Shown here: in pieces, positions 2,866-61,625 of the stretch | Numbering within the stretch: position 1 is the stretch's first letter | Layout: every line of letters starts with the position of its first letter | From: Planctomycetota bacterium | Lineage (GTDB): Bacteria; Planctomycetota; UBA8742; SKZP01 | Direction of reading: 5' to 3' | Assembly (NCBI GenBank): GCA_050249295.1 | Contig: JBFWQT010000001.1 | Span: 623-64,622 of the forward strand | Length of the DNA: 64,000 nucleotides | Notes under the pieces: generated by a model | The model's database searches: none | What the model saw: only the letters and a program-made list of their open reading frames with translations | What the model was told of the DNA's origin: nothing | Made by a program: the position numbers and the translations under genes

Positions 2866-4932
2866 ATGCGCATGCGACCGATTGCTGCAGCGACCGCGCT
2901 GATCCTGACGGCGTCGTTGGCCGCGGGCTGCGGAACGCCCGAGCCCACGCTCGGCCATAACGAGCTGTCGATGATGCTGACGGCCGACGCCCCTCGCAGC
3001 GGCGGCCGCGGCACGTCCAGTGTGGCGGCGCCGTCGCTGGCCGACAACGCGCGCAGCACCGTGAGCGCGGCCGACTCGGCCGAGGCCGGCCTGCAGAGCA
3101 CGCATGCCGTGCCGCCTGCCGATCCGCCCGACGGGCCGCGCGAGCTGTTGCTCGAGTTCCATCCGCAGCACGCGACCGGCCTGCTCGACTTCCGTCCCGA
3201 AGAGGCCACGCCGATCGCCGCGCCGCAGCCCGGCGATCCCGCCCCTCCCGCGCAGCCGCTGGCCACCGATGCCAACCCGCCGCTGGTCACCATCGACGGC
3301 GACGTGGTCTACGCCGACGCATTCGTGGACCGCTGCTTCCGAATGCACCACGAGTGGTACCTGATGTTCCTCCGCGAGATGATGGTCGAGCGCATGGCCG
3401 CGCTCGAGTCGGCGCGCGAGGGCATCGAGTTCAGCGATGCCGAACTCGACGCCGTGCATGCCAACGTCGTGGCCTTCCTGCAGCAACGCGCACGCCGGCT
3501 GCAGATGTCGTGGCGACAGCACTGGGAGACACTCGGCTACGAGACCGAGGCCGCCTACATCGCCGCGCTGCGCACGCAGACCGCCCGCATCGTGAGGCTC
3601 GAGCGGCTCGTGATGCTGATGGACCTGCGCCTCTCGAAGGTCGACTTCTCGTGGATCATGATCCGCGACAAGCCCGACCGCATGAACCCCGACCCCGAGG
3701 CCCGCGCGCGCCACATCGTCAGCGAGTTGCGCGCCGGCACGCTTGCCTGGGACGCCGCGGTCAGGCGCCACACCACCGACGCACGCAGCCGCGATACGAA
3801 AGGCAAGTTCGGCACCATCGTACGCGGTTCGCTCGGCGTAGAAGACCTGGAGAACTGGCTGTTCTCGCACTCGCCCGGCGAGATCTCCGACCCGCTGCTG
3901 CACCCCGTCTACGGCTGGATCATCGCGCGCGTTGACGACGCCACCACCGGCCAGCCCGACATCACGTGGGAACAGGCGAAGGAGACCGTCCAGCAGCGGC
4001 TCGACCAGCAGGAGGGCGTGCCCGGCACCCGCGTCACCGGCCGCGACACCTTCATCTGGCTCGAGCGCATCATCGCCAGCAAGCGCTACCCGGTGCGCAG
4101 CTACGCGCCGCGCCCCGCGTCCGGCGAGCCGCGCGTGGCCGAGGTCAACAACGTGCCGCTCACGCTCGGCCAGTTCGTCGACCATGCCTTTGCCAACAAC
4201 CCCGACTGGGCGCGGCAGATTCTCTCCGAGGTGATTGTCTTCCGGGTGGCCACCACCGAGGCCGCGCGCGAGGGCATTGATGTGAACAGCATGGTGAGCA
4301 CCGGCACCGACCGGATGCTGCTCTGGCTGCGCAACTCGGCCCGCAGCCGCCAGCAGAACTTCGACGAGATCTGGCAGAACCAGGGTTACGCGTCGATCGA
4401 CGAGTTCCGCGAGAAGGTCATCTCGCCGCTGGTCGCCGAGTCGCTGCGCATCGAGCGGCTCGTGTTCCTGCACGACCGGCGAGTGGAGCGCCGCGAGCTG
4501 TGGCACATCCTGCTGCAGAGCGAGGAACTGGCGAAGAAGGCGAAGCAGGCGCTGGCCGAGGGCCACAAGTTCGAGGACGTCGCGAAGTACTACTCGCAGC
4601 ACAAGGCGTCGGCGCAGCGCGGCGGCCTGCTCGGCATCATCCCGATCGACTCCTACGACGAAGCGTTCTCGAAGGTGGCGTTCTCGCTGCCACTCAACGG
4701 CGTGTCGGAACCCTTGCAGACGGCGCAGGGCTGGCATGTCATCCGCGTGACGAAGATCATCCCGGCGAATCCCGGCCTGACATGGGGTGCCGCGCAGGAC
4801 GAGATCGAGAAGGCGCTCGAAGGCATCAGCCCGATCCCCGGCCAGCGCATTGTCACAGCTGACACCTACCGCTGGATCGCGGCGATCCGCAAGACCGACC
4901 GCCACAAGATCGAGCCGCACTTCCCGCGCTGA
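2866..4932 (+). CDS. Peptidyl-prolyl cis-trans isomerase, PpiC/parvulin type, lipoprotein (SurA/PrsA-like chaperone)
   Basis: Lipobox LTASLAAGC; two parvulin-like blocks (TKGKFGTIVRGSLGVEDLENWLFSH...; QRGGLLGIIPIDSYDEAFSKVAFSLPLNGVSEPLQTAQGWHVIRV). Confidence 0.8.
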   Translation: MRMRPIAAATALILTASLAAGCGTPEPTLGHNELSMMLTADAPRSGGRGTSSVAAPSLADNARSTVSAADSAEAGLQSTHAVPPADPPDGPRELLLEFHPQHATGLLDFRPEEATPIAAPQPGDPAPPAQPLATDANPPLVTIDGDVVYADAFVDRCFRMHHEWYLMFLREMMVERMAALESAREGIEFSDAELDAVHANVVAFLQQRARRLQMSWRQHWETLGYETEAAYIAALRTQTARIVRLERLVMLMDLRLSKVDFSWIMIRDKPDRMNPDPEARARHIVSELRAGTLAWDAAVRRHTTDARSRDTKGKFGTIVRGSLGVEDLENWLFSHSPGEISDPLLHPVYGWIIARVDDATTGQPDITWEQAKETVQQRLDQQEGVPGTRVTGRDTFIWLERIIASKRYPVRSYAPRPASGEPRVAEVNNVPLTLGQFVDHAFANNPDWARQILSEVIVFRVATTEAAREGIDVNSMVSTGTDRMLLWLRNSARSRQQNFDEIWQNQGYASIDEFREKVISPLVAESLRIERLVFLHDRRVERRELWHILLQSEELAKKAKQALAEGHKFEDVAKYYSQHKASAQRGGLLGIIPIDSYDEAFSKVAFSLPLNGVSEPLQTAQGWHVIRVTKIIPANPGLTWGAAQDEIEKALEGISPIPGQRIVTADTYRWIAAIRKTDRHKIEPHFPR

Positions 4933-4947
4933 GCGCGCCCACCCACC

Positions 4948-5484
4948 ATGCCCGCCAGCTACCACTTCATCACCAACTGGGTGCTGGAAGGCACCACCTG
5001 CGACGACGTCTACGCGATCCTGCATGACGCCGATTCGCTGCCGCAGTGGTGGCCGAGCGTCTACCTGTCGGTGCGGCGCGACGACGACGGCAACATCCTG
5101 CTCTGGACCAAGGGCTGGCTGCCGTACACGCTGCAGTGGGCCTTCCGCGTCACCGTCGAGGACCCGCCACATCGGCTCGGCCTGTCGGCCAACGGCGACT
5201 TTGTCGGCGAGGGCATGTGGACGATCGCGGCCGACGAGGCGCACCCGGCAAACGTGAAGGTCACCTACGACTGGCGCATCGAGGCGGCCAAGCCGTTGCT
5301 GCGCCGCCTCAGCTGGCTGCTGCGCCCGGTGTTTTCGGCCAACCACCACTGGGCCATGCGCGTCGGCCTGACCAGCCTGAAGCTGGAACTGGCCCGCCGG
5401 CGCGCCACCACCGACGCGGAGCGTGCCGCGATCGCGGCCCCGCCGCCTCCGACCTTCAGGTGGCTGCTGCCGCGGCGTGGATGA
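4948..5484 (+). CDS. SRPBCC-family protein (polyketide cyclase/dehydrase, START-like)
   Basis: 178 aa; typical SRPBCC size and W-rich pattern (YHFITNWVLEG...LPQWWPSVY...TLQWAFRVTVEDPP); high GC3. Confidence 0.7.
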   Translation: MPASYHFITNWVLEGTTCDDVYAILHDADSLPQWWPSVYLSVRRDDDGNILLWTKGWLPYTLQWAFRVTVEDPPHRLGLSANGDFVGEGMWTIAADEAHPANVKVTYDWRIEAAKPLLRRLSWLLRPVFSANHHWAMRVGLTSLKLELARRRATTDAERAAIAAPPPPTFRWLLPRRG

Positions 5485-40245: not shown

Positions 40246-40371
40246 ACCGCGGGGATTCGCCCCTCCGGGCCCACTGGCTGCCCATGGCTGCCGGGTGGTA
40301 GCGTCTCGCCCGGCGGATTGATCGCTCACGTCCGACAGGCGCCACATTCCAGCGTGGCGCGCGGAGGCCAG

Positions 40372-41604
40372 ATGGTGCGTTGTCTTGCGCTCATGCTCGC
40401 GGTGCTTTGCGTTGCCCTGTGGTTGCCCCTCGCTCCGGCCCACCACGCCGCGGCGCAGGATCCCGACGAGCCGGAGGCAGGGCCTGCCGATCCCGGCGAC
40501 GACGAGCCGGAGACGCCCGCCGCACCCGCGCACGCCGTGATCATCCACATCGACGGCGGCCGCGTGATGGCCGGTTTCGCTGGCGACAAGGCGCCGAAGG
40601 TGGAGTTCCCCGCGGTGGTCGGCCGTCCGCGCGAAGGCGGGGAGCCGCAGTTCGGTGACGCCGCGTTGTCCGACGATCTGCAGCAGAGCTGGCCGGTCGA
40701 ACTCGGGCGGATCGTCAACGTCGCTGACTATTCACTCCTGATCGGGCACGCGCTGGACGGGCTGCACGCCACCGGTGCCGGGCAAGCGCTTTTGTTGACC
40801 GTCGCGTCGCACACGCCGTTCGATCAGCTCGAACAGGTCGCGAAGTCGATGTTCGAGACGCACCAGGTGGGTTCGCTGTTCTTCACGCGCGACGCGGTCA
40901 CGGCGCTCTACGCGTCGGGTCGCACCACGGGTCTTGTCGTGGTCGGTTCGTACGACCACACCGGCGCGACCGCCATCTACGACGGCCACACCATCCAGAC
41001 CGACATGCTCGAGGTCGGCGAGCGGCAACAGGTCGAGTACCTGGCATTCCTCCTCAAGAAGCGCGGCATCCCGCTCGACAGCAATCTGCGCCTGAGCCGC
41101 AACCCCGCGACCGACATCTACCGCAAGCTGGCGTTCGTCGCGGACGACTTCGACGCAGCCGAGGCGATGGCGGCCGAAGGTAGCCACTTCGATCAGACCT
41201 GCGCGCTGCCCGGCGGCCAGCAGATCACCGTGGGCGCCGAGCGCTACCATTGCGCCGAGACGCTGTTCCGGCCGACCATGCTCGGCCGGGTCCTCGAGGG
41301 CATCCACTTCCTGGCATACGGCCGGGCCATGCGTTGCGATGCGGACCTGCGGCCCACGCTGTACGCGAACGTGGTGCTGGCCGGCAACGTGGTCACCGGT
41401 ACCGCCGAACGACTGACCCGCGAACTGACCGTGCTGGTGCCGCAGGCGATGCCCGTCAAGGTCGCCGTTCTGCCGCATGCACAGTACGGCGTGTTCGAGG
41501 GTGCGTCGCTGCTCGCGGGGATCGACACGTACCGGCAGATGTGGATCAGCCGGGCCGACTACGACGCGTCGGGCCCGGCGATCGTGAAGCAGAAGTGCCA
41601 GTAG
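40372..41604 (+). CDS. Eukaryote-type actin homolog with N-terminal Sec-like signal peptide
   Basis: GGAGG 6 nt upstream of ATG 40372; [30 protein letters not shown] then actin fold: [29 protein letters not shown] (cf. [31 protein letters not shown]), LYASGRTTG identical to actin, [46 protein letters not shown]. Confidence 0.85.
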   Translation: [410 protein letters not shown]

Positions 41605-45165: not shown

Positions 45166-46215
<1,050 letters not shown>

Positions 46216-46390
46216 CGCGCGCGATGCTATGCTGCGCGCGCCTCGCCACTCGCGGGGCGGCGATGGTCCGGCGCCACCAAACTCTTGCCGACCACTCGCC
46301 AGGCACGCGGCCATTTCGCCGCCCGCCCGGCCCGCACCAGCGGGGCCGGCGGTTTGCCAGCCACACCGTCATCCATCCCACACCGATCGC

Positions 46391-48034
46391 ATGCCGCGTT
46401 CGTTCGTTGCCGGTCTGCTCAATCGTCTCGAAACCTCCCAGCACATGCTCGATGAGGTGCTCGCCGTCGAGTTCAGCAAGCGCAAGGAGATGCACGGCGC
46501 GCGGCGCCATCGTGCCAAGCTGCTGGCACACGAGGTGATTCGCCGGCGCGCGACGCTCGATCAGATCCTCAAGGTGTATTCGTCGCGGCCGCCAGAGAAC
46601 ATGGAACACCATGTGCGCACCGTGCTGCGCCTGGCGCTGGCCGAGTGGTTCTTTGTGGAGCCGATTCCGCGCCGGCCCGAGGAGATTGAAGCGGCCAGGG
46701 CCCGGCAGCGCGAACGGCCGGAAGAAGACGACGATCGTCGGCGCCGCAGCTCGTCGGATGACGACGTGGAGCGCGACGAGCGTGATGACGATGACCGCCC
46801 GCGGAATCGCGACCGTGACCGTGAGCGGGAGCGAGACGATCGCGACCGGGACGATCGCGACGAGCGTCGTGGTCGCGGCCGTCGGCGCCGGCGTCGTGGC
46901 CACCATACGCCGGAGTGGAGCGACGACGATCCGAGCCACCAGGACGAGAACATGCCGGTCGCGCGCGGCCCGATCGCGGCGGCGGCGGTGAACCTCGTCG
47001 GCACCGGCCGGCCGTCGCGCGGGTTCGTCAACGGTGTGTTGCGCGCGGTCGATCGCGAGACCACCTACGATGCCGAGGGGATCATCGCGCCCGGCGAGTA
47101 CCCGCGCGACCGCATGCCCGCGGGCTACGGCGGCGTGTACACCTTCCGCCGACAGCTCTTCGCCGACCCGACAAAAAAGACCACGCAGTGGCTCGCGCAG
47201 TTCTGCTCGTTCAACAAGTGGCTGGCCGAGCGCTTCGTGGCGCGCTACGGACTCGACGAGGCCGTGGCGATCGGCGAGGCCAGCAACGGCCAGCCGGCGC
47301 TTTCGGCGCGCATCAACACGCGGCGCATCCAGCCCGACGAGCTCGTCGCACAGCTGGAAGCGGCCGGCATTCCGGTCACGCGCACCGGGTTCCCCGAGGT
47401 GATCCGCCTCGACAAGCGCGTGCCGCTGGTTGGCACCGAGTGGTTCGAGAACGGCCTGCTCTACCTCCAGGATTTCACCGCCACGCGCGTTGCGCACCTG
47501 GCCGGGCTGGAGCCGGGCATGCGCGTGCTGGATGCGTGCGCCGCGCCCGGCGGCAAGATCACGCACGCGTGCGAGCTGCTCGGCGGCAAGGGCACATTCG
47601 TCGCGTGCGACTCGTCCGACCGCCGGCTCGCGCTGCTCGAAGACAACCTGGAGCGGCTCGGCCACGACGAGGTCGACGTGCTGTGCTCCGATCTGCGCAC
47701 CTACGCGGCCGGCTCGCCGGAGAAGTTCGACGTGATCTTTGTCGACGCACCGTGCAGCAACACGGGTGTGCTCTCGCGTCGTGCCGAGGCGCGGTGGCGC
47801 GCGTGCGACAAGCTGCAGCAGAGCCTGATCACGCTGCAGGTCGAGTTGCTGCGCGCCGCGAAGTCGATGCTCACCGACACGGGCCGGATCATCTACTCGA
47901 CGTGCACGCTCGAGCCGGAGGAGAACCGCGGCGTGGTGGTGCAGACCGACCTGAACCTGGTGCAGGACTGGCTGTGGCTGCCCGAGAACGGCCTGCATGA
48001 CGGCGGGTATCACGCCGTACTGACCGCAAAGTGA
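46391..48034 (+). CDS. rsmB: 16S rRNA (cytosine-C5)-methyltransferase RsmB/Sun family with NusB-like N-domain and RD/ER-rich insertion
   Basis: ATG 46391; NusB-like N-term; SAM-MTase motifs VLDACAAPGGKITH, DVIFVDAPCSNTGVLSRR, IIYSTCTLEPEEN; about 80-aa RDRDRERERDD...RRRRRRG insert. Confidence 0.85.
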   Translation: MPRSFVAGLLNRLETSQHMLDEVLAVEFSKRKEMHGARRHRAKLLAHEVIRRRATLDQILKVYSSRPPENMEHHVRTVLRLALAEWFFVEPIPRRPEEIEAARARQRERPEEDDDRRRRSSSDDDVERDERDDDDRPRNRDRDRERERDDRDRDDRDERRGRGRRRRRRGHHTPEWSDDDPSHQDENMPVARGPIAAAAVNLVGTGRPSRGFVNGVLRAVDRETTYDAEGIIAPGEYPRDRMPAGYGGVYTFRRQLFADPTKKTTQWLAQFCSFNKWLAERFVARYGLDEAVAIGEASNGQPALSARINTRRIQPDELVAQLEAAGIPVTRTGFPEVIRLDKRVPLVGTEWFENGLLYLQDFTATRVAHLAGLEPGMRVLDACAAPGGKITHACELLGGKGTFVACDSSDRRLALLEDNLERLGHDEVDVLCSDLRTYAAGSPEKFDVIFVDAPCSNTGVLSRRAEARWRACDKLQQSLITLQVELLRAAKSMLTDTGRIIYSTCTLEPEENRGVVVQTDLNLVQDWLWLPENGLHDGGYHAVLTAK

Positions 48035-48045
48035 ACGCCTGACCC

Positions 48046-48312
48046 ATGAACGAACCGACACCGCCGAGACGCGACTCCGATGCACGCACGCCGTTGCGCG
48101 GGCTGAATCGCATGCTCGACTACGCCCAGGTCGGGTACTACTTCATCGGTGCGTTCCTGGGTTCGGCCGGGCTCGGATGGCTGATTGATCGCTGGCTCGG
48201 CACGTTGCCGTGGGGCGTGATCGTCGGCTGCCTTGTTGGTCTTGCGTCGGGCGGGTGGATGACGCTGCGCGAACTCGAACGCATGTCGCGGCGGCGCGAC
48301 GGCGACCAGTAG
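48046..48312 (+). CDS. Small 2-TM membrane protein, AtpZ/AtpI-like
   Basis: 88 aa, GLNRMLDYAQVGYYFIGAFLGSAGLGWLIDRWLGTLPWGVIVGCLVGLASGG pattern typical of AtpZ/AtpR-type proteins; 12 bp after rsmB stop. Confidence 0.5.
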   Translation: MNEPTPPRRDSDARTPLRGLNRMLDYAQVGYYFIGAFLGSAGLGWLIDRWLGTLPWGVIVGCLVGLASGGWMTLRELERMSRRRDGDQ

Positions 48313-48443
48313 TGTCGTTGCCGGTGCCGGTGCCGCTGGCCGTTACCGTGGAGTACAGTGGAGTAGCCGTGGAGCCTGGAGCCTGCCACAACACGGAACC
48401 GACCCGGCCGCAAACACGACCGGGTCGGTGGTTCTTCCGGATG

Positions 48444-48516
48444 ACCCCACGGGGACTCGAACCCCGGTTCGCGGACTGAGAATCCGCTGTCCTGGGCCGC
48501 TAGACGATGGGGCCCG
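48444..48516 (-). tRNA. tRNA-Glu (anticodon CUC)
   Basis: Reverse complement GGCCCCATCGTCTAGCGGCCCAGGACAGCGGATTCTCAGTCCGCGAACCGGGGTTCGAGTCCCCGTGGGGTCA folds as cloverleaf: 7-bp acceptor stem, anticodon loop TTCTCAG, T-arm CGGGG-TTCGAGT-CCCCG; CCA not encoded. Confidence 0.8.
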
Positions 48517-48663: not shown

Positions 48664-51591
48664 ATGTGCACCATGACCCTGCCGGATGAAGTCCCCGACA
48701 GCCCGCGCGGCCAACCGCCAGCATCGCCAGGGGCGACCAGACCCGGTGGACCGGACCTCTCCGACCTCGTCGATCCCGGCCCCGCGCAGGCCCCGGTGCC
48801 CGACGCGACAATCGACCCGGAAGTTCTCGACCGGGCTGCACTGATCGACCTCGCGCGGCGACAGGCCGAGCGCGTCCGTCTGCTCGAAGAGCTCGTCGGC
48901 CAGCACGCACCCGCCCCGACCGCGGCCGACTCCGGCTTCAGCTGGGCCCAGATCCAGCCGGGGCTGCCGTTCGAGAGTGTGGTCGACTTCCGGATGATGG
49001 TCGAGCGTTGCTCCGTCCCGATGGTCGTCACGCTCCCCGACGGCACCGTGCTCTACGCCAACCGCGCCGCGCTCGGCGTGATGGAAGTCGACGCCGAGTC
49101 CGCCGCCGGCCGCTCGCTGGTCGACCGGCAGTTCTTCGCCAACCCCGAGCAGTCCGACCTCTTCCCGCAGCGCCAGCTCGCCGGCGAGAACCCGGTGCGA
49201 GAACGCTGCCAGATGATCACCGCGCGCGGCCGGCACTTCGAGGCGCTGATCGTCCACCACGCGGTGCGCGATGCTGCCGGCAACATCTGCTACGGCATCT
49301 CCACGCTGCAGGACATCTCGCTCTACGAGCGCGGCGACGCCGAGCGCAAGCGCCACGCGGCCCGCACGACGCGCCGGCTGGTGCAGAGCGAGGCGCGCTA
49401 TCACACGCTGTTCCAGCAGATTCCCGAGGCGATCTTCCTCGTCGACGCCGGCGACCAGCGCATCGTTGACGCCAACCCCGCCGCCGAGACGCTGATCGGC
49501 CTGCCCGGCGAACTGCTGCTCAACCGCCAGATCAGCGAGTTCGTCGACGCGCGCAAGCTCGAGCGCGCGGGCGAGGCGCGCTCGCCGCGCTCGCTGGCCG
49601 GCAGCACCATCCGCCGCGCCGACGGCCGCCACGCCGAGATCGAAGGCAGCCTGCAGCTGCTCGAGTACGCTGGCCGCGCCACGCTGCTCCTCATTGTGCG
49701 CGACGTCACCTGGCGCCGCGCCGCCGAAGCGCACATCCGCATGCTCTCCGACGCGATCGACGCGCTGCCCGAAGGCGTTGCGATCTTCGACCCCGACGGC
49801 GCCATCCGCTACGCCAACGCCGCGCTGATCGCGACCTACGGCTGGACCGACGCCGAGTTGAGCGTGGCGACGGTCGACTCGCTCGGCCTGCATCCCGAAC
49901 TGCCGATGGACAGCGGCGCGCATTGGTCCGAGAGCGAATCGTCGTCCTCGCGCGCGACCGGCAGCGCGAGCCGGCGTCGCCTGGCCCGCCTGACGCCGCT
50001 GCCCGAGGCGCTGGCCGGTGCGGTCGAGGATGCCGCGCGCCAGATGGCGTCGAACGACGCCGTCAGCCCCGGCAGCACCGACAACATCGCAACCGGTGTC
50101 GACCCGCTCAGCATCGGCCAGCTGTTGCGTCCGTGGTCGGCCCGCATGATGGTGCGCACTGACCGCATCGCGCCGCGACCGGTGCGCCTCGTTTGTTCGC
50201 CGGTCTACGAGCCCGGCCCGGCCCCCGGCTCGCAGGGCCTGCCCGACGCGGCCCCCGGCCTGCGCGGCGTGGTCGTGGTGCTGCACGACATGGCCACCGA
50301 ACAGCAGATGCAGGAACACCTGTTGCAGTCCGAGAAACTCGCCTCGATGGGCACGCTGGTCGTCGGCCTGACGCGCGAACTCAATACGCACCTCGCGCCG
50401 ATCATCGGCTTCGCGCAGTTGCTCGGCGAGCGCGACGCGGCCTCGACCGACTCCGGCTTCTACCTCGACCGCATCCAGGAGTCCGCCCGCGCGGCCCGCC
50501 GGATCATGGACGAGTTGCAGGACTTCGCGATGCCGCCGGGCGAGCTGAACCCGGTGAATGTGGCGCGCCTCGCCCGCGACGTCGCCACGCTGATGGAGTA
50601 CGCGTTCCGCGATCGCGGCGTGACGCTCAGCGTCGACCTCGAACCCGGCGCGCCATCGCCCCGCGTGGAGGCCAACCGCGAGCAGCTGCGCTCGGTGCTG
50701 ATGCACCTGGTGCGCAACGCGCTCGACGCATGCGAGCGCGGCGATGGCGTGCGACTGCGGGCGCACAACTCCGACGCCGGCACCGTGATCGTCGAGGTGC
50801 TCGACGAGGGCCACGGCCTGTCGCCCGATGTCGCCGCGCACATGTTCGATCCGTTCTTCACGACGCGCGACGTCGGCCAGGGCATCGGCCTCGGCCTGTC
50901 GGTCTGCTACGGCGTGGTGCGCGACCTCGGCGGCGAGATCTCCGGCGAGAACCGCAGCGACCGTCGCGGCGCCCGCTTCGTGGTGGAGTTGCCGGCGTGG
51001 CGCGCCGCGCCCGAGGCCGCGACGATCGAGAGTGGTGCCGACCTGACCGACGTCGCCGCCGCCGCCGTGGCCCTGCCGCCGCCGCCGCCGTCGTCGTCCC
51101 CCGCTGCATCGTCCGACGCGGCAGGCGCGTCGAAGCCCGGCCGTCCGGCCGCGTCGTCGCGGAGTCGCAGCGCCGAGGTGCCGCCCGAGCTGGCCGGCCG
51201 CACGGTGCTGATTGTGGATGACGAGCCGTCGATGGTCTCGTTGCTCACGCGGCTGTTCACGTCGCGCGGGTTTGTGGTGCGGGCCTACACCGACCCCGAG
51301 CGCGCGCTGAACGCGCCCGACCCGAGCGACCTGGTGATCACCGACGTGTGGATGCCGATCCTCGACGGCGTGGCGCTGCGTGACGCGTACCGCCGGCGTT
51401 GGCCGCAGGCCGACACGCGCTTCATCTTCATCACCGGCGACACGGCCGACGGCGAGCTCGAGCGGGTGATCCGCACCAGCGGCGACGTGGTGGTGCAGAA
51501 GCCGTTTGATATCGCGCGCATCCTGCAGCAGGCGATCAGCGCGCTGGGCGGCGGTCGCAAGACGAGCACCGGCCGGTTCGAGCGCGGCTGA
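48664..51591 (+). CDS. Hybrid sensor histidine kinase (PAS domains, HisKA, HATPase_c, C-terminal receiver)
   Basis: Multiple PAS-like blocks, HisKA helix with H-box region LVVGLTRELNTHLAPIIGFAQLL, N/G1/G2 boxes (LVRNALDA, DEGHGLSPD, GIGLGLSV), receiver LIVDDEP...DVWMPILDG...K. Confidence 0.85.
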   Translation: MCTMTLPDEVPDSPRGQPPASPGATRPGGPDLSDLVDPGPAQAPVPDATIDPEVLDRAALIDLARRQAERVRLLEELVGQHAPAPTAADSGFSWAQIQPGLPFESVVDFRMMVERCSVPMVVTLPDGTVLYANRAALGVMEVDAESAAGRSLVDRQFFANPEQSDLFPQRQLAGENPVRERCQMITARGRHFEALIVHHAVRDAAGNICYGISTLQDISLYERGDAERKRHAARTTRRLVQSEARYHTLFQQIPEAIFLVDAGDQRIVDANPAAETLIGLPGELLLNRQISEFVDARKLERAGEARSPRSLAGSTIRRADGRHAEIEGSLQLLEYAGRATLLLIVRDVTWRRAAEAHIRMLSDAIDALPEGVAIFDPDGAIRYANAALIATYGWTDAELSVATVDSLGLHPELPMDSGAHWSESESSSSRATGSASRRRLARLTPLPEALAGAVEDAARQMASNDAVSPGSTDNIATGVDPLSIGQLLRPWSARMMVRTDRIAPRPVRLVCSPVYEPGPAPGSQGLPDAAPGLRGVVVVLHDMATEQQMQEHLLQSEKLASMGTLVVGLTRELNTHLAPIIGFAQLLGERDAASTDSGFYLDRIQESARAARRIMDELQDFAMPPGELNPVNVARLARDVATLMEYAFRDRGVTLSVDLEPGAPSPRVEANREQLRSVLMHLVRNALDACERGDGVRLRAHNSDAGTVIVEVLDEGHGLSPDVAAHMFDPFFTTRDVGQGIGLGLSVCYGVVRDLGGEISGENRSDRRGARFVVELPAWRAAPEAATIESGADLTDVAAAAVALPPPPPSSSPAASSDAAGASKPGRPAASSRSRSAEVPPELAGRTVLIVDDEPSMVSLLTRLFTSRGFVVRAYTDPERALNAPDPSDLVITDVWMPILDGVALRDAYRRRWPQADTRFIFITGDTADGELERVIRTSGDVVVQKPFDIARILQQAISALGGGRKTSTGRFERG

Positions 51592-51600
51592 ATCTGGCGG

Positions 51601-51633
51601 GCAGGAGCCGCGACCGCAAGGGAGCGGGCCCAT
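51601..51633 (+). repeat. REP-like family A copy
   Basis: ggcaggagccgcgaccgcaagggagcgggccc 10 bp after HK stop. Confidence 0.7.
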
Positions 51634-51932
51634 TCGCGCCCGCGGCTCAAGCATCGCGGCTGGCGGGCCGATATCGATGTGCTGGCACCGGTGTGCCGGA
51701 GCCCGCGACGCAGCGACCGACAGCGCCGGGGTCGATTTCCCGGATAATGTTTTGTATTTTATGTCTTGTGGTGTACAGTTCGGGCGCGGGTCACTCCGCC
51801 TCGCCAGCACCGGAAAACAGGACACCCGACGGTCGGGCGCATCGCTCCTGCCATGCGCCGCCGCTGACGGTCCGTCCACTCGTCTGCTCGTCACTCAACT
51901 CACCACTCGTTCGCCGCACTTCGAGGATCGCC

Positions 51933-52805
51933 ATGGCCACTCGCCCACGGACCACCCGCCGACTCAAGGTCACTGTTGATCAGCCCGTCGCCGCCCACGC
52001 CGCCGCCATCGCCACCAACGGCGCCGCGCGCGACGCCAAGGCCACGGCCGCCGCGACCGAGGACGCGAAGCTCTGGCAGCGCTACCACGAGACCAGTTCG
52101 CAGGCCCTGCGCGACATGCTGATCGAACGCTACTACCCGCTCGTCCACGTCATCGCCCAGCGCATGTGCAGCCGACTGCCCGCCAGCGTGCAGGTCGACG
52201 ACCTCGCCAGCGCCGGCGTCTTCGGCCTGCTCGACGCCATCGACGGCTTCGACCCCGAGTACGGCGTGAAGTTCGAGACCTACTGCACGACCCGCATCCG
52301 CGGCGCCATGCTCGACGAGATGCGCCACCTCGACTGGGCGCCGCGCCAGGTGCGCAGCTCGCAGGCCCGCCTCGACCAGACGCGCGCCGAACTCGAGAAG
52401 GAACTCGGCCGCGCGCCCTCCGACGACGAACTGATGGACGCGCTCGACATGAGCGGCGAGGAGTTCTCCGACTTCCGTCGCAAGGCCGACGCCGCGCAGA
52501 TCACGTCGCTGACGCAGGGCGACGACAGCGACGGCGACGACTCGGGCGGCAGTCCGCTGACGATGGTCGCCAACGCGGCCGCGATCGAGCCCGGCGAGAC
52601 CGTCGCGGTGCGCGAACTGTTCCCGAAGCTCGGCAGCATGCTGACGCCGAACGAGCGCATCATCCTGGTGCTCTACTATCACGAGTCGTTCACGATGAAG
52701 GAGATCGGCCAGATCCAGGGGATCTCGGAAAGCCGGGTCTGCCAGATCCACGGCCGGATCATCGATCGTCTGCGCGGCAGCCTGCGGAGCGATCAAGCGT
52801 CATGA
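51933..52805 (+). CDS. fliA: RNA polymerase sigma factor FliA/WhiG (sigma-28)
   Basis: GAGGA 6 nt before ATG 51933; region 2 LWQRYHETSSQALRDMLIERYYPLVHVIAQRM, region 3, region 4 ERIILVLYYHESFTMKEIGQIQGISESRVCQIHGRII; acidic DDSDGDDSGG insert. Confidence 0.85.
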   Translation: MATRPRTTRRLKVTVDQPVAAHAAAIATNGAARDAKATAAATEDAKLWQRYHETSSQALRDMLIERYYPLVHVIAQRMCSRLPASVQVDDLASAGVFGLLDAIDGFDPEYGVKFETYCTTRIRGAMLDEMRHLDWAPRQVRSSQARLDQTRAELEKELGRAPSDDELMDALDMSGEEFSDFRRKADAAQITSLTQGDDSDGDDSGGSPLTMVANAAAIEPGETVAVRELFPKLGSMLTPNERIILVLYYHESFTMKEIGQIQGISESRVCQIHGRIIDRLRGSLRSDQAS

Positions 52806-53029
52806 TGAACCCCAGCGAGTACCTGGTCTTCGTGCTCTACTACGTGGAGCACAAGTCGATCCGCGAGATTGCGGACGTGATGAATCTGCCGGAGTCGAAC
52901 ATCCGCGCGATCCACGACCGCGTCGTGTTCCTTGCGAACCGCAACCGCCAGACGAGTCGCCCGGTAAACGCCCCGGCGGCAACCGTGGCCGACGACACCG
53001 CCGCGACGGCCTGGCACGCGGCCGCGTGA
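52802..53029 (+). CDS. Stand-alone sigma-70 region-4-like HTH mini-protein (75 aa), start overlaps fliA stop (ATGATGA)
   Basis: MMNPSEYLVFVLYYVEHKSIREIADVMNLPESNIRAIHDRVVFLANRN parallels FliA region 4 just upstream; high GC3; translational coupling geometry. Confidence 0.5.
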   Translation: MMNPSEYLVFVLYYVEHKSIREIADVMNLPESNIRAIHDRVVFLANRNRQTSRPVNAPAATVADDTAATAWHAAA

Positions 53030-53092
53030 GCGTGTCGGATTCGTGATCGGGCGCACCCGGGTCGATCCCGCCTGACTGCAGGAAGAGGGTCC

Positions 53093-53195
53093 AACACAGA
53101 GAGCACAGAGCACACAGAGACGAGCAAGGGAGGCATCGCGCCTCTCCGCTTCTTCTCTGTGTGCTCTGTGCTCTCTGTGTTGAGGGTCCATATGC
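53093..53195. repeat. Family B hairpin repeat: CACAGAG-heptamer arms around CGCGCCTCT core (bidirectional terminator-like)
   Basis: ccaacacagagagcacagagcacacagaga ... ggcatcgcgcctctccgcttc ... tctctgtgtgctctgtgctctctgtgttg; lies in convergent gap between region-4 ORF and antiporter gene. Confidence 0.8.
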
Positions 53196-53238
53196 AACAA
53201 GAGCCGACGCCTCACACCCCGGCCCGGAGCCGGACAAC

Positions 53239-55173
53239 TCAGTCGCCCTCTTCCAGCTTGCCGTCGGTCTTGCGATTGCGCCGGCTGATCGCCTTGACCA
53301 TCCGCGTGTTGTCGCTCTCTTCGATCAGCGCGAGCACTTTCTGGCCGCTCTTCGGCGACGGCGGCGACTCGGCAGTCCAGATCACGAGGTCGCCGTTCTC
53401 CTTGATCAGCGCCAGCGGCAGCGCCTTGTCGGCGTACTGCTGCAAGAAATCCTGGAAGTCGAACTCGTCGCTCATCGGCGTCGCGCGGATCACGCCGCCG
53501 CGAACCACGCGCTGCTGCAGATGATCGAACGTCGCCTCCTTGTCGAACAGCAGCCGGCCGCGCATGTGCATGCCGAGCTTCTCGTAGCGCTCGCTCGCCT
53601 CGCCGCCCATCGCCAGCTGGTAGGTGTTCACGCGGCCGAAAAGCTCATGGAAGTGCTGCACGGCCAGCGCGTTCAACTCGTCGTTGCGCGTCATCGCCAG
53701 CAGCCGGCCCTTGCCGTCGAGCTCCATGCGGTCCATCGCGTACTCCGAGAGCACGCTGCCGTAGAAGGTCTGCAGCCCGGCCATGCGCGCCGCCGAGATG
53801 TTCTGCCAGTTGGTGTCCACCACCAGCACGTCGTAGCCCTCGGCCTTCATCGCCTTGCCGATGGCCAGCTGCAGGCGGTCGGCGCCGGCAATCACCAGGC
53901 CCTGCGGGTTCTTGCTCGCGAGCTTCAGCCGTCGTGCCAGCGTGGCCGCGGTCAGCCCGTAGATCGCGACGGTGCTGATCACCACCAGGAACACGTAGAG
54001 CACCAGCTGGTTGGCCAGCTCCTCGCTGACCACACCGTGCTTGACCAGCTCGAGCGCAAAGATCGACGTCACGGCCGCCGCCACGATGCCTCGCGGCGCG
54101 AGCCAGGCAATGAACACGCGCTCGTTGCGCTTCAGCTCGGACTTCAGCGTGCTGGCGTACACCGCCGCGGGCCGGATCACGAACAGCAGCAGCAGGATGA
54201 ACACGATGCTGCCGGGGTTGATCACGAGGCTCACGTGATCGAGCGGCAGCCGCGCCGAGAGCACGATGAACAGCACGCTGATCAGCATCGTGCGCATGAT
54301 CTCCTCGAACTCGAGGATGTGCTTCACGCTGGCGTGCTTCTGGTTGGCCAGCAGGATGCCGGCCAGCGTGACCGTGATCAGGCCCGACTCCGGCTGGATG
54401 AAGTTCGACGCGGCAAACCCGACCAGTACCAGGCCGACTGCCACCGGCGCGTGCAGGTAGTCGGGCACCCAGTGGTTGCGGATCACCTGGACCAGCACCC
54501 ACGAGATGAACCAGCCGATCACGCCGCCGGCGAATAGCGATCGGCCGAGGCTCAGCACGGCCACGCCGACCGCGCCATCGCCGGCGTGCAGCAGCATCTC
54601 GAAGATGATCACGGCGAGCACCGCGCCGATCGGGTCGTTGACGATGCCCTCCCACTTGACCACCGAACCGACGCGGCGCGTGGGGCGGATGTGGCGCAGC
54701 ATCGGTACGACGACGGTCGGTCCGCTGACGACCAGGATTGCACCGAACAGCGCCGACACGCCCGGCGGCAGGCCGAGCAGCAGCGCGGCCGCGAGCGACG
54801 CCAGCACCCACGTGACGGCCGCGCCGATCGTCACGAGGTTGCGCACGTCGCGCGTGGTTTGCCGCAGCTCGGCGAAGCGCAGGCTCATGCCGCCTTCAAA
54901 CAGGATCAGCGCGACCGACAGCGACACGGCCGGGAAGAGCATTTCGCCGAAGGTGCTGTCCGGATCGAACAACGCCGTGCCGGTGACTTTCCTCGCAATC
55001 GGCCCGGCACAGAGCCCGGCGAGCAGCAGCATCAGCACCGACGGCACCTTCAGCCGCCACGCAATCCACTGGGCGAGAATGCCGAGGCCGATGATGCCGG
55101 CCAGGATCAGTTGCGGCGGCACGCCACTCCCGGCGCTCTCGACGCTGGCCAACAGCGGGCAGTACGTGATCAC
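53239..55173 (-). CDS. Na+/H+ (cation:proton) antiporter, CPA family, with C-terminal RCK/TrkA-like regulatory domain
   Basis: 12-13 TM helices with conserved antiporter motifs (GPTVVVPMLRHIRP, FEGIVNDPIGAVLAVIIFE), C-terminal soluble domain GLVIAGADRLQLAIGKAMKAEGYDVLVVD (Rossmann RCK). Confidence 0.85.
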   Translation of the reverse strand: MITYCPLLASVESAGSGVPPQLILAGIIGLGILAQWIAWRLKVPSVLMLLLAGLCAGPIARKVTGTALFDPDSTFGEMLFPAVSLSVALILFEGGMSLRFAELRQTTRDVRNLVTIGAAVTWVLASLAAALLLGLPPGVSALFGAILVVSGPTVVVPMLRHIRPTRRVGSVVKWEGIVNDPIGAVLAVIIFEMLLHAGDGAVGVAVLSLGRSLFAGGVIGWFISWVLVQVIRNHWVPDYLHAPVAVGLVLVGFAASNFIQPESGLITVTLAGILLANQKHASVKHILEFEEIMRTMLISVLFIVLSARLPLDHVSLVINPGSIVFILLLLFVIRPAAVYASTLKSELKRNERVFIAWLAPRGIVAAAVTSIFALELVKHGVVSEELANQLVLYVFLVVISTVAIYGLTAATLARRLKLASKNPQGLVIAGADRLQLAIGKAMKAEGYDVLVVDTNWQNISAARMAGLQTFYGSVLSEYAMDRMELDGKGRLLAMTRNDELNALAVQHFHELFGRVNTYQLAMGGEASERYEKLGMHMRGRLLFDKEATFDHLQQRVVRGGVIRATPMSDEFDFQDFLQQYADKALPLALIKENGDLVIWTAESPPSPKSGQKVLALIEESDNTRMVKAISRRNRKTDGKLEEGD

Positions 55174-56390: not shown

Positions 56391-58322
56391 ATGCCGACCC
56401 TGACTTCCAGCCTCAACGACCCGGCGCCGTTGCCGACGCCGTCGACGTCCGATGCCGGGCGGCTGCGCGACGTGTTCACCGCGGAGCAACTGGTCTCGCA
56501 TGCGACCAGCCTCGTGGTGGTGCCGTTCGTGGTCATGCAGGTGCTGGTGCTGATCCTCGCCGACGCGGTGCACCCGGTGAAGGACGGCTTCTACACCGTG
56601 GCGCTGCTGGCCGGGCTGTTCACGACCGGTGCCGGCTGCGTCGGTCTCGCGATCCTGGTGCGCCGGCTGCTGGCACGGGCCGACTCGCACGAGCAGTCGC
56701 ACAGCCTGTGGTCGTTCATCGATCACAGCTCGGTCGTACTGGCCGTCGCGCCGGGCATGATGTCGCTGGTCGCCGGGTCGGTGGCCGGGCTCGCGGTGAA
56801 CCTCGCGGGCGGCGAGGCGCCGACGGGCAAGCTGTTCTGGCTGTCGATCGTGCTGGCCGGTGCGGTGTTCCCCGGCCTCAACGTGTTGCTCTGCCTCTCG
56901 CTCGGCCGGCTGGCCGGGCTGCGTCACGACCAGTTGCTGCAGTCGGTCGGCCGTCGCGCGAAGAGCATGATGACGCTCGGCGCACGTGTGGGCATGGCGA
57001 TGGTGTTCAGCGCGTTGCTGCCGGTGGTGTGGACGCTGATGCTGCTGCTGCGCGCCAGCGAGGGCCACGGCCTGACGCTCGGCGGCAACGTGGCGATCTT
57101 TCCGCTGGCCTGTGCGCTGCTGGTGGTGGCCGGGTTCAATGCATACGCGTTCCGCGCGTGGCTGCACCGCATCACGCTCGGCCTGCGCGGCCAGCTGGCG
57201 CAGTTGCACAGCGGTGCCAGCGATCGCCCGCCGTTCCTCGGCCTCGATGAAGCCGGCAGCCTGACCGGCGACGCAGCCGAGGCGGCGCAGCACATCAGCG
57301 AGCTGGCGGCCCGCCTGCAGCGCGTGGCCGACGGCGACCTGACGGTGACCTTCCCCGATCAGAGCGTGCTCTCGCTGGCTGCGCGCCGCGTGACCGAGTC
57401 GATGCTCGCGTTGGTCGACCGGGTGGCGCATGCCGCCGCGAAGGTGCAGGACGACGCGCACCACGTGCTCGAGACGGCGCTCGATGTCGAGGCCAGCGCG
57501 CAGGAGCAGTCGCTCAACGTCGACGAGTCGCGCCGCACGATGCAGGGCCTGCGCCAGTGCAGCAGCGAGATCAACAGCGAGTCGCGCGAGCTGGCCTCGG
57601 CGTCGGAAGACGTCCTGAGCGTGACCGAGAACACCGCGTCGCAGATTTCGCAGCTGGTCGAGCACCAGGTGCAGATCGAGGAACTGCTCGACACGGTGCG
57701 CGAGATTGCCGAGCGGTCGGACATCCTCGCGCTGAACGCGTCGCTCGAGGGTGTGCGCGCGGGCGAGGCCGGTCGCGGGTTCAGCCTGGTGGCGGCCGAG
57801 ATGCGGCGCATGGCCGAGAAGGTCAAGTCGGCCGCCAACGACATCCGCCAGACGGTGAGCAACGTGCGCAGCTCGGCGCGCGCCACCATGATGGGCATCG
57901 AGGAAGGCCGGCGCGTCGGCGACCGCATGAAGAAGAGCGTCGAGCGCATCCTGTTGATGGCGATGCAGCAGCAGAGCAGCACGGCCCAGGTGAACAACAA
58001 CATGTCGGACGTCGCGAGCTACCTGCAGGACGCCACCGGCGACACGGCGCGCGCCCGCGAACTGGCCGAGTCGTTGACGAATCGTGCCAGCAGCCTGCTC
58101 GAGCTGGTCGAGCAGTGGAACCTTCCGGAGGCCGAGGATTGGGGCCAGACCGGCAGTCTGGGTGGTGTCGAGTTCGACTCTGACGACAACATCATCTTCC
58201 GTCCGAGCGGCCGTCAGGCGGCCACCGACCCGACCACGGCCCGCGCCACCGCGGCCAGCAGCAGTGACGACGCGAGTGGTTCGCCCGACCCCGCGACTCC
58301 GCCCGACGCACAGCCCGAGTGA
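56391..58322 (+). CDS. Methyl-accepting chemotaxis protein with polytopic N-terminal sensor
   Basis: About 6 TM helices then signalling domain with highly conserved DILALNASLEGVRAGEAGRGFSLVAAEMRRMAEKV hairpin-tip motif. Confidence 0.85.
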   Translation: MPTLTSSLNDPAPLPTPSTSDAGRLRDVFTAEQLVSHATSLVVVPFVVMQVLVLILADAVHPVKDGFYTVALLAGLFTTGAGCVGLAILVRRLLARADSHEQSHSLWSFIDHSSVVLAVAPGMMSLVAGSVAGLAVNLAGGEAPTGKLFWLSIVLAGAVFPGLNVLLCLSLGRLAGLRHDQLLQSVGRRAKSMMTLGARVGMAMVFSALLPVVWTLMLLLRASEGHGLTLGGNVAIFPLACALLVVAGFNAYAFRAWLHRITLGLRGQLAQLHSGASDRPPFLGLDEAGSLTGDAAEAAQHISELAARLQRVADGDLTVTFPDQSVLSLAARRVTESMLALVDRVAHAAAKVQDDAHHVLETALDVEASAQEQSLNVDESRRTMQGLRQCSSEINSESRELASASEDVLSVTENTASQISQLVEHQVQIEELLDTVREIAERSDILALNASLEGVRAGEAGRGFSLVAAEMRRMAEKVKSAANDIRQTVSNVRSSARATMMGIEEGRRVGDRMKKSVERILLMAMQQQSSTAQVNNNMSDVASYLQDATGDTARARELAESLTNRASSLLELVEQWNLPEAEDWGQTGSLGGVEFDSDDNIIFRPSGRQAATDPTTARATAASSSDDASGSPDPATPPDAQPE

Positions 58323-61160: not shown

Positions 61161-61625
61161 GGCAGGAGCCGCGACCGCTAGGGAGCTGAAGAGTCATCTC
61201 AGAACACCGGCGAGCCGGGGACGTCAGTCCCCGGAGGGGTAACCCATGGTCACGCGCTGGACGTGCGCGGGGACTGCTTGCCGCCGAGTACGACGCAAGA
61301 AGAGATTCACCACAGAGAACACAGAGACCACAGAGAAGAGGCTGAGAAGTGGGACGCGCCTCTCCTCTTCTCTGTGTTCGCTGTGTTGAACCTTCTTCGG
61401 TCCAGCGCGCCCGAACAAGTGCCGCGACCGCAGGGGAGCGGGCCCGAGGGCCTTTCGACTGCAAGTCCGCCACTCGCTGAATGCATGGTCGACGGGTTGA
61501 TCGCAGGCACGAGGCCCCCGCGGCCCGCTCCCTTGCGGTCGCGGCTCTTGTTGAAGAAGTGGCGAGGTGAGACGCGCCTCTGATTCCACTTCTCTGTGTT
61601 CTCTGTGTTCTCTGTGTTGAACCTC
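61161..61625. repeat. Composite repeat island: family A copy (61161), family B hairpin (61291-61395), family A long hairpin (61415-61551), family B half-site (61571-61625)
   Basis: ggcaggagccgcgaccgctagggagc; ccacagagaacacagagaccacagagaa...gacgcgcctctcc...ttctctgtgttcgctgtgttg; gaacaagtgccgcgaccgcaggggagcgggccc...(70 nt)...gggcccgctcccttgcggtcgcggctcttgttg; gagacgcgcctctgattccacttctctgtgttctctgtgttctctgtgttg. Confidence 0.85.

Follow-up and report, generated by a model that had tools for sequence, protein, structure and literature searches.

Directly behind the flagellar sigma factor gene fliA of a Planctomycetota bacterium lies a small gene, here called the mini-gene, whose 75-residue product (the mini-protein) is a stand-alone version of sigma region 4 (sigma-4), the helix-turn-helix (HTH) domain that binds the -35 element. 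We analyzed this gene within a 64,000-nucleotide stretch of DNA (the window; GenBank assembly GCA_050249295.1, contig JBFWQT010000001.1, positions 623 to 64,622 of the forward strand). The mini-gene is a genuine gene under purifying selection and not a chance open reading frame (ORF). Judged from sequence comparison, the mini-protein belongs as an atypical member to a small uncharacterized family of stand-alone sigma-4 proteins in Planctomycetota, or else is a sister to that family. Our tentative preference, at less than even confidence, is that it derives from a sigma-4 domain, binds a DNA target of its own and acts as a co-regulator whose synthesis keeps pace with that of FliA.

The mini-gene overlaps the fliA stop codon and is a genuine gene

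The two genes and their junction are as follows.

51933 to 52805, + strand: fliA, flagellar sigma-28 factor of 290 residues (TIGR02479 at 222.4 bits; Pfam Sigma70_r2, r3 and r4)
52802 to 52805, + strand: ATGA overlap of the fliA stop and the mini-gene start, with the same junction in two related loci (L001 and L002)
52802 to 53029, + strand: mini-gene, 75-residue sigma region-4-like protein, TGA stop at 53027-53029

The fliA frame ends in GCG TCA TGA, with its stop at 52803-52805, and the mini-gene opens with ATG ATG AAC from 52802, in the -1 frame relative to fliA. The L002 junction reads ATGATGATGA, with an in-frame ATG on the fliA stop. An earlier reading of the window (the original prediction) had proposed a stand-alone sigma region-4 module translationally coupled to fliA. 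Its coordinates, junction and quoted peptides all agree with the sequence, and the module and its physical coupling to fliA are borne out by the ATGA junction and by a Pfam score above cut-off. The mini-protein is identical to NCBI entry MGE0434164.1, from an uncultured Planctomycetota metagenome-assembled genome (MAG), and the FliA of the window is likewise identical to an NCBI entry. In a literature search, no account of a region-4 gene coupled to fliA came up. As far as that search reaches, the claim that such a gene had not been described stands, but the protein itself already carries a generic NCBI name, 'sigma factor-like helix-turn-helix DNA-binding protein'.

The G+C content of the window is 69%, and long spurious ORFs are common in this genome. 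Nevertheless, the mini-gene has the composition of a coding sequence: its G+C content at third codon positions (GC3) is 0.91 in frame but 0.63 and 0.44 out of frame, and fliA (0.92) and the neighboring genes are alike in this respect. The ratio of non-synonymous to synonymous substitution rates (dN/dS) is 0.15-0.22 across the first 46 codons and 0.5-0.6 in the tail, and the dS values match those of fliA (0.45 and ~1.1). Comparisons with the most distant copy, that of L002, count 16-17 synonymous versus 15-17 non-synonymous changes in the 46 codons. The start, stop, length and C-terminal motif are kept in three genomes, the two orthologues being 76 residues each. The coding signature, the ATGA-linked orthologues and the low dN/dS together indicate that the mini-gene is real, rather than a chance ORF of a G+C-rich genome.

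Two other ways of reading the junction were rejected. A longer protein from an upstream in-frame start (ORF 52166 to 53029), which would provide the first sigma-4 helix that the mini-protein lacks, was discounted because all three orthologues begin with M-M-N-P-S-E-Y at the fliA stop; the upstream part is an alternative frame of fliA, Pro/Arg-rich and non-helical. A programmed frameshift fusion was discarded as well, a slippery heptamer being absent from the junction in the window, L001 and L002.

The mini-protein is a truncated sigma-4 domain with a conserved C-terminal motif

The original prediction rested on a resemblance to FliA region 4, and this resemblance withstands a profile search. 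Pfam Sigma70_r4 (PF04545) matches the mini-protein at 30.2 bits (E = 3.1e-7; gathering cut-off, 24.1 bits), residues 3-40 aligning with positions 6-43 of the 50-position profile, and Sigma70_r4_2 matches at 29.3 bits (cut-off, 25.7). Precomputed annotation assigns a Sigma70_r4 domain to the orthologues P0002 and P0003 as well. By BLASTP, the mini-protein is 36% identical to region 4 of the window FliA over 42 residues (E = 2e-9), and its best sequence matches in the PDB are FliA and WhiG. The FliA_WhiG profile TIGR02479, which identifies FliA/WhiG sigma-28 factors, gives 23.6 bits against a cut-off of 189.6, with the last 40 profile positions alone matched, so that the mini-protein does not qualify as such a factor. 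Pfam found neither Sigma70 region 2 or region 3 domains nor a receiver domain in the 75 residues, nor a match to PF22233 (PhyR_sigma-like), and the Pfam hits to E = 1 include neither FlgM (PF04316) nor GerE (PF00196). A PHROGs search returned weak sigma and regulator matches only.

The following parts of the protein can be distinguished.

52811 to 52954, + strand: three-helix sigma-4-type HTH core (residues 4-51; helices 4-15, 20-27 and 31-51)
52892 to 52927, + strand: recognition helix (residues 31-42)
53012 to 53026, + strand: C-terminal W-H-A-A-A, matching the family pattern W-H-x-A-A-stop and preceded by a linker that is variable and predicted to be disordered

The AlphaFold2 model of the mini-protein has a predicted local distance difference test score of 85-94 over residues 1-40 and below 50 in the tail. 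The best Foldseek matches to this model are sigma-4 domains, with root-mean-square deviations of 0.8-2 A. They include a Bacillus subtilis SigD model (35% identity), SigR region 4, and SigW and sigma-E region 4 on -35 DNA; 6jhe and 2h27, isolated sigma-4 domains co-crystallized with -35 DNA, are among the best. The mini-protein begins after the first sigma-4 helix (ELFPKLGSML in FliA) and is therefore a truncated sigma-4, reduced to a minimal tri-helical HTH. Hallmark residues that it has in common with FliA/WhiG region 4 are L-Y-Y...E, E-I and H. The 25-residue tail varies except for A57-P58 and the terminal W-H-x-A-A, whose W, H, A and A recur unchanged in each of the three copies; gene products ending in AA number two among 27 in the window.

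fliA and the mini-gene probably form an operon

Based on the conserved promoter-like elements before fliA and a hairpin after the mini-gene, fliA and the mini-gene are probably a two-gene operon that is auto-activated by FliA. The elements are as follows.

51646 to 51674, + strand: putative sigma-28-type promoter-like element, CTCAAG (51646-51651), 15 nucleotides, GCCGATAT (51667-51674)
51752 to 51779, + strand: putative sigma-70-type promoter-like element, TTGTAT, 16 nucleotides, TACAGT
53092 to 53182, no strand assigned: long hairpin with 43-nucleotide arms, 86% complementary, between the mini-gene and the convergent Na+/H+ exchanger gene

The sigma-28 promoter consensus that we used is TCTAAAG / GCCGATAA (PMC12784957). 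The aligned position in L001 reads CTAAAG-N15-GCCGATAG, and the upstream regions of fliA in the window and L001 align only from this element onward. The 64-kb window contains only five copies of the heptamer GCCGATA, both strands counted. The sigma-70-like element, which a stricter consensus scan missed, lies within an A+T-rich block conserved with L001 (TTGTAT, 16 nucleotides, TATAGT). The fliA start, MATRPRTTRRLKV, is common to the window and L001, and in the window a GAGGA motif stands 6 nucleotides upstream of it.

Positions 53030-53200 fold with a free energy of -106.7 kcal/mol (z = -10.2), with no U-tract. L001 and L002 likewise have a hairpin just 3' of the mini-gene, and no terminator separates the two genes. 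As expected for a translationally coupled operon partner, the stop/start overlap is kept in three loci and hairpins occur only after the mini-gene. The hairpin of the window is the probable transcript end of the operon. No Rfam family was found in 51400-53400, where the hairpin resembles microRNA precursors only below threshold. The hairpin is built from CACAGAG-type repeats, related copies of which form a second inverted pair about 280 nucleotides apart (61311-61335, + strand, and 61592-61616, - strand). It looks like a genome-specific, intergenic, repeated palindromic element that matches no Rfam family.

The mini-gene is confined to three related genomes

In a search of 5.8 billion proteins, just two more homologues of the mini-gene product were found, with 75% and 61% identity. 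In both cases (L001 and L002), the gene follows fliA immediately through the same ATGA overlap, so that the ORF is intact in the closest relatives and the gene is present in three related uncultured Planctomycetota in all. This clade is very sparsely sampled: after the L001 FliA (79% identical), the next FliA homologues are ~53-55% identical or less. An exhaustive all-against-all HMMER comparison with 1.84 billion cluster representatives revealed no further clear member, the mini-protein itself being the only match at E < 1e-30 and the rest being weak sigma-4 matches. Likewise, JGI metagenome scans detected neither the mini-gene nor a FliA closer than 41%, and a scan of GTDB species representatives with FliA gave no further copy. 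No mini-gene was called behind three inspected FliA genes (P0006, P0008 and P0009), whose contexts are tsaE-like, flhA-flhF-flhG-fliA and nickel insertion. We also scanned every ORF of at least 40 residues with an HTH-core profile at FliA-type loci with at least 350 nucleotides downstream of fliA. A second sigma-4-like ORF near fliA was found in none of 60 other loci, and the positive controls (L001-L004) gave two sigma-4 ORFs each.

In the window, the pair is flanked by a PAS histidine kinase gene upstream and the Na+/H+ exchanger gene downstream; in L001, the flanks are a DUF2064 gene upstream and a gene for an uncharacterized 580-residue protein downstream. Given that these flanks differ, fliA and the mini-gene appear to travel as a unit.

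Three further observations concern fliA itself. In the clade of the window it stands outside the flhA-flhF-flhG-fliA cluster that is usual in other Planctomycetota (L006 and L008), and in the window it follows a PAS/HisKA/receiver hybrid kinase gene (48664-51591). The FliA proteins of the clade have an acidic, Asp/Ser-rich linker between sigma-3 and sigma-4 (QGDDSDGDDSGGS), which is also present in the 55%-identical P0006. In a Planctomycetales MAG (L017, 4437-5455), a normal 243-residue FliA is followed by a different 95-residue ORF that overlaps the fliA stop (5168) and has no Pfam match; small fliA-coupled genes for unrelated proteins may be a recurring theme.

The closest relatives are stand-alone sigma-4 proteins of Phycisphaerales

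Relatives came to light among the weak hits of the exhaustive search. Three of these (P0135, P0141 and P0143) served as seeds for a profile search, which yielded ten stand-alone sigma-4 proteins of 88-116 residues from Phycisphaerales MAGs (the three seeds and P0150-P0156). The mini-protein is 41-47% identical to these proteins, versus 36% to FliA region 4. It scores 43-49 bits on the profile of the relatives, versus 25-33 bits on a profile of 118 planctomycete FliA C-termini. A recognition-helix signature, V-R-[AR]-[IT]-H-[DE]-R, is common to the relatives and the mini-protein, whose copies read IRAIHDR, IRSIHDR and VRAIHDR, whereas FliA has S-E-S-R-V-C-Q-[IL]-H. R35 and R40 are each found in 11 of the 13 sequences and H38 in all 13. 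The mini-gene is probably not, to judge from these alignments, a simple copy of the neighboring FliA domain. We considered a recent tandem copy of the fliA 3' end as the simplest origin and rejected it, given that the mini-protein is closer to the Phycisphaerales relatives than to any planctomycete FliA region 4.

The mini-protein also differs from these relatives. They have the first sigma-4 helix and an N-terminal extension, both absent from the mini-protein, whereas they lack its C-terminal tail and its invariant K18, a position that is hydrophobic in the relatives and in FliA (the L210 position). Their genes are monocistronic, have a sigma-70-like promoter and lie near ahpC or VKOR-DsbA genes, whereas the mini-gene lies near fliA and the Na+/H+ exchanger gene. 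At the inspected loci, one side holds a divergent set made up of ahpC and the genes for a response regulator and an NAD-binding oxidoreductase; VKOR/DsbA is on the other side in three of them, and che genes are nearby in two. A search upstream of the genes for the stand-alone relatives revealed no sigma-28 promoter, only the sigma-70-like one. A near-perfect palindrome, GCGCGCAA(C/G)TTGCGCGC, is present in most of the divergent intergenic regions of these loci (L009-L016; for example L011, 5001-5309, intergenic 4808-5000), and may be an operator.

The residues that contact the -35 element are replaced, and the FlgM surface is partly dismantled

We mapped the mini-proteins onto the contacts that Pseudomonas aeruginosa sigma-28 makes to the -35 element and to FlgM (PMC12784957) by means of an HMMER alignment to P. 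aeruginosa FliA. The register was fixed by eight residues named in that paper, all of which fell on the right letters. The -35 contacts K208 and R220 of Escherichia coli sigma-28 were taken from a preprint (10.1101/2020.01.02.893370). The equivalents in the three mini-proteins are as follows.

-35 contact K213 (E. coli K208): R, R and S
-35 contact S224: S, S and P
-35 contact R225 (E. coli R220): N, H and S
-35 contact Q228: A, S and A
FlgM contacts L187 and I191: in the first sigma-4 helix, absent from the mini-protein
FlgM contacts L200, L204 and Y206: kept as L8, L12 and Y14
FlgM contact A203: conservative change, V11
FlgM contact E209: H or S
FlgM contact L210 (hydrophobic): invariant Lys (K18)

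The window FliA retains all four -35 contact residues. In the mini-proteins, these positions vary among the three orthologues, whereas the rest of the domain is almost invariant. Since the -35 contacts are replaced, it is unlikely that the mini-protein copies the promoter recognition of FliA, and the original suggestion that a free region-4 module could compete for the -35 element is not upheld. The other suggestion, that the module could serve as a decoy for the anti-sigma factor FlgM, emerges weakened and is not the one we favor. Four of the eight FlgM contacts are kept or conservatively changed, but two lie in the missing helix and two are changed, which leaves the groove for the conserved C-terminal FlgM helix half gone.

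A DNA-binding co-regulator is tentatively favored over a protein-contact mimic

If the mini-protein is a DNA-binding co-regulator, the mini-gene would share a transcript with fliA, ribosomes re-initiating at the ATGA junction to translate it, and through this coupling the amount of mini-protein would follow FliA synthesis. The recognition helix (residues 31-42, with the family-conserved R35, H38 and R40) would read a DNA target other than the sigma-28 -35 element. The fliA operon would thereby gain a second output, following the same logic as FliZ of E. coli. By analogy with the LAA of the ssrA tag or the C-terminal AA of Caulobacter CtrA, the conserved W-H-x-A-A may be a ClpXP-type degron and the protein short-lived; such a degron would tie its level to ongoing fliA expression.

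We lean toward this explanation because the recognition helix differs from that of FliA yet is conserved across the family, because the relatives look like ordinary small regulators (with their own promoter, divergent from the ahpC operon), and because the flap and FlgM surface is partly dismantled. Moreover, small HTH-only proteins are mostly DNA-binding regulators, which adds to the case. Several points weigh on the other side. The HTH core has six K/R versus six D/E residues as counted by eye, and thus no net positive charge; no dimerization element is evident; and no DNA target was identified. The degron is a resemblance of motif alone. With three mini-protein sequences, conservation specific to one surface cannot be read. 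Finally, no other gene pair in the window shows translational coupling as strictly conserved as this one, and such coupling is typical of proteins that bind each other, for example sigma/anti-sigma pairs.

The last point leads to readings in which the mini-protein is a sigma-28 region-4 mimic purely through protein contacts, whether with FlgM, with the beta-flap, with FliA domains 2/3 or as an exchangeable sigma-4. As a group, we regard these as a real possibility, albeit a rather doubtful one. If they held, the fliA operon would carry a built-in anti-anti-sigma or anti-sigma module. To our knowledge, no sigma-domain mimic has yet been described for a group-3 sigma factor, and sigma mimicry would then have been invented independently a second time, besides PhyR. 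In one form, the chief rival to the co-regulator although on its own we find it unlikely, the mini-protein would modulate sigma-28 by titrating FlgM, as an anti-anti-sigma factor in the manner of PhyR for NepR, or by occupying the beta-flap tip of RNA polymerase. It is paralogous to FliA-type sigma-4, with FliA and WhiG as its best PDB matches, and L8, V11, L12 and Y14 correspond to the FlgM contacts L200, A203, L204 and Y206. The ATGA coupling, kept across a dS of ~1.1, would suit a stoichiometric partner, the core is not basic, and a built-in buffer would make sense for an operon that appears to be auto-activated. However, half of the FlgM groove is missing with the first sigma-4 helix (L187 and I191), L210 is replaced by an invariant Lys and E209 by His or Ser, the closest relatives are unlinked to fliA or flagellar genes, and no FlgM gene was found within the 64-kb window. 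It is distinctly improbable, in our estimate, that the mini-protein is instead a partner of FliA itself, either an anti-sigma- or chaperone-like subunit on FliA domains 2/3 or an exchangeable second sigma-4 that redirects the holoenzyme to another -35 element in the manner of SigO-RsoA. Its translationally coupled gene does occupy the classic place for a sigma partner, immediately 3' of the sigma gene, and moves together with fliA, the window and L001 having different flanks. The recognition helix, unlike that of FliA but conserved, would also fit. When sigma-28 is complexed with FlgM, its sigma-4 is packed onto sigma-2 and sigma-3 (PMC12784957), a site to which a free sigma-4 might in principle also bind. 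Yet FliA is complete, with an intact region 4 and all of its -35 contacts, and leaves nothing to complement, and the missing first helix belongs to the usual flap-binding surface.

For the two remaining explanations we see very little room. Direct competition for the sigma-28 -35 element is highly improbable: the mini-protein is modeled with a sigma-4-type fold, truncated but with a complete HTH, and its S32 is equivalent to the base-contacting S224 in two of three copies, but the equivalents of R220/R225, Q228 and K208/K213 are N/H/S, A/S/A and R/R/S, whereas the window FliA keeps all of them, and the variation of these positions among orthologues in an otherwise almost invariant domain points the same way. 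Least credible of all is a non-functional leftover of a partial duplication, a gene-caller artifact or the frameshifted half of a FliA fusion with two sigma-4 domains. The ORF is short, in the -1 frame and confined to three metagenome-derived genomes, in a genome where spurious long ORFs are common. Against this stand its GC3 of 0.91, its dN/dS of 0.15-0.22, the conservation of its start, stop, length and C-terminal motif in three genomes, the absence of a slippery heptamer, and a kinship of the mini-protein that is closer with the stand-alone family than with FliA region 4.

Other features of the window

The genes named below lie on either side of the fliA locus.

45166 to 46215: sigma-54 activator without receiver domain
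46229 to 48034: rsmB
48046 to 48312: AtpI-like small membrane protein
48442 to 48514, - strand: tRNA-Glu(CTC)
56391 to 58322: methyl-accepting chemotaxis protein

A search with a simple pattern found no sigma-28-type promoter before the methyl-accepting chemotaxis protein gene. Just upstream of ftsK, a 428-residue ORF (40318-41604, + strand) gives a full-length match to eukaryote-type actin (PF00022, 200.9 bits, E = 3.4e-59). Its best PDB match is 1c0f_A (E = 1.3e-73), with residues 72-427 on actin 6-367. The GC3 of this ORF, 0.87, fits the host genome, indicating that the ORF is not eukaryotic contamination. Its exact sequence from the TTG start is absent from the protein collection. An actin-like gene has a precedent in the planctomycete 'Ca. 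Uab amorphum', whose product groups with BARP, ActM and Asgard actins (PMC6906331).

Comparison with known systems

Control of sigma-28 is a textbook checkpoint, exerted through FlgM secretion, and few modulators of it are known. The mini-gene is a compact natural experiment in the re-use of a sigma domain as a regulator, although its value is limited by a narrow distribution in three uncultured genomes. If the mini-protein binds DNA, a sigma-4 domain would have turned into an autonomous transcription factor, and in Planctomycetota fliA would have a second output comparable to FliZ. Binding to FlgM, the beta-flap or FliA would instead make the mini-protein a new case of sigma mimicry.

FliZ of E. 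coli and Salmonella is encoded in the fliA operon, is made with FliA and is related to the DNA-binding domains of phage integrases. It binds DNA and interferes with promoter recognition by another sigma factor (PMC3367168). The co-regulator that we favor would follow the same operon logic, but the two are not homologous, FliZ being absent from the Pfam hits of the mini-protein, and FliZ has no ATGA overlap with fliA. In PhyR, sigma-2-like and sigma-4-like parts derived from an extracytoplasmic function sigma factor are fused to a receiver domain. Its sigma factor mimicry in the general stress response of alphaproteobacteria has been reviewed (PMC4598750). Both PhyR and the mini-protein are sigma-derived, and PhyR, no longer a sigma factor, is a precedent for the decoy reading; however, the mini-protein has neither PF22233 nor a receiver domain.

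In SigO-RsoA of B. subtilis, each partner is incomplete and complements the other, RsoA supplying the region-2 part. Sigma functions are thus spread over two polypeptides in that system, whereas the FliA of the window lacks nothing and the mini-protein adds a second region 4. Compared with FliA/WhiG region 4, the mini-protein is a separate polypeptide without sigma-2 and sigma-3, its -35 contacts are replaced and it has the W-H-x-A-A tail. FlgM, too, is a small and partly disordered regulator of sigma-28, but it is not an HTH protein, and the Pfam search to E = 1 showed no sequence similarity between its profile and the mini-protein. Anti-sigma factors are typically encoded beside the gene of their sigma factor, and the mini-gene is likewise placed beside fliA.

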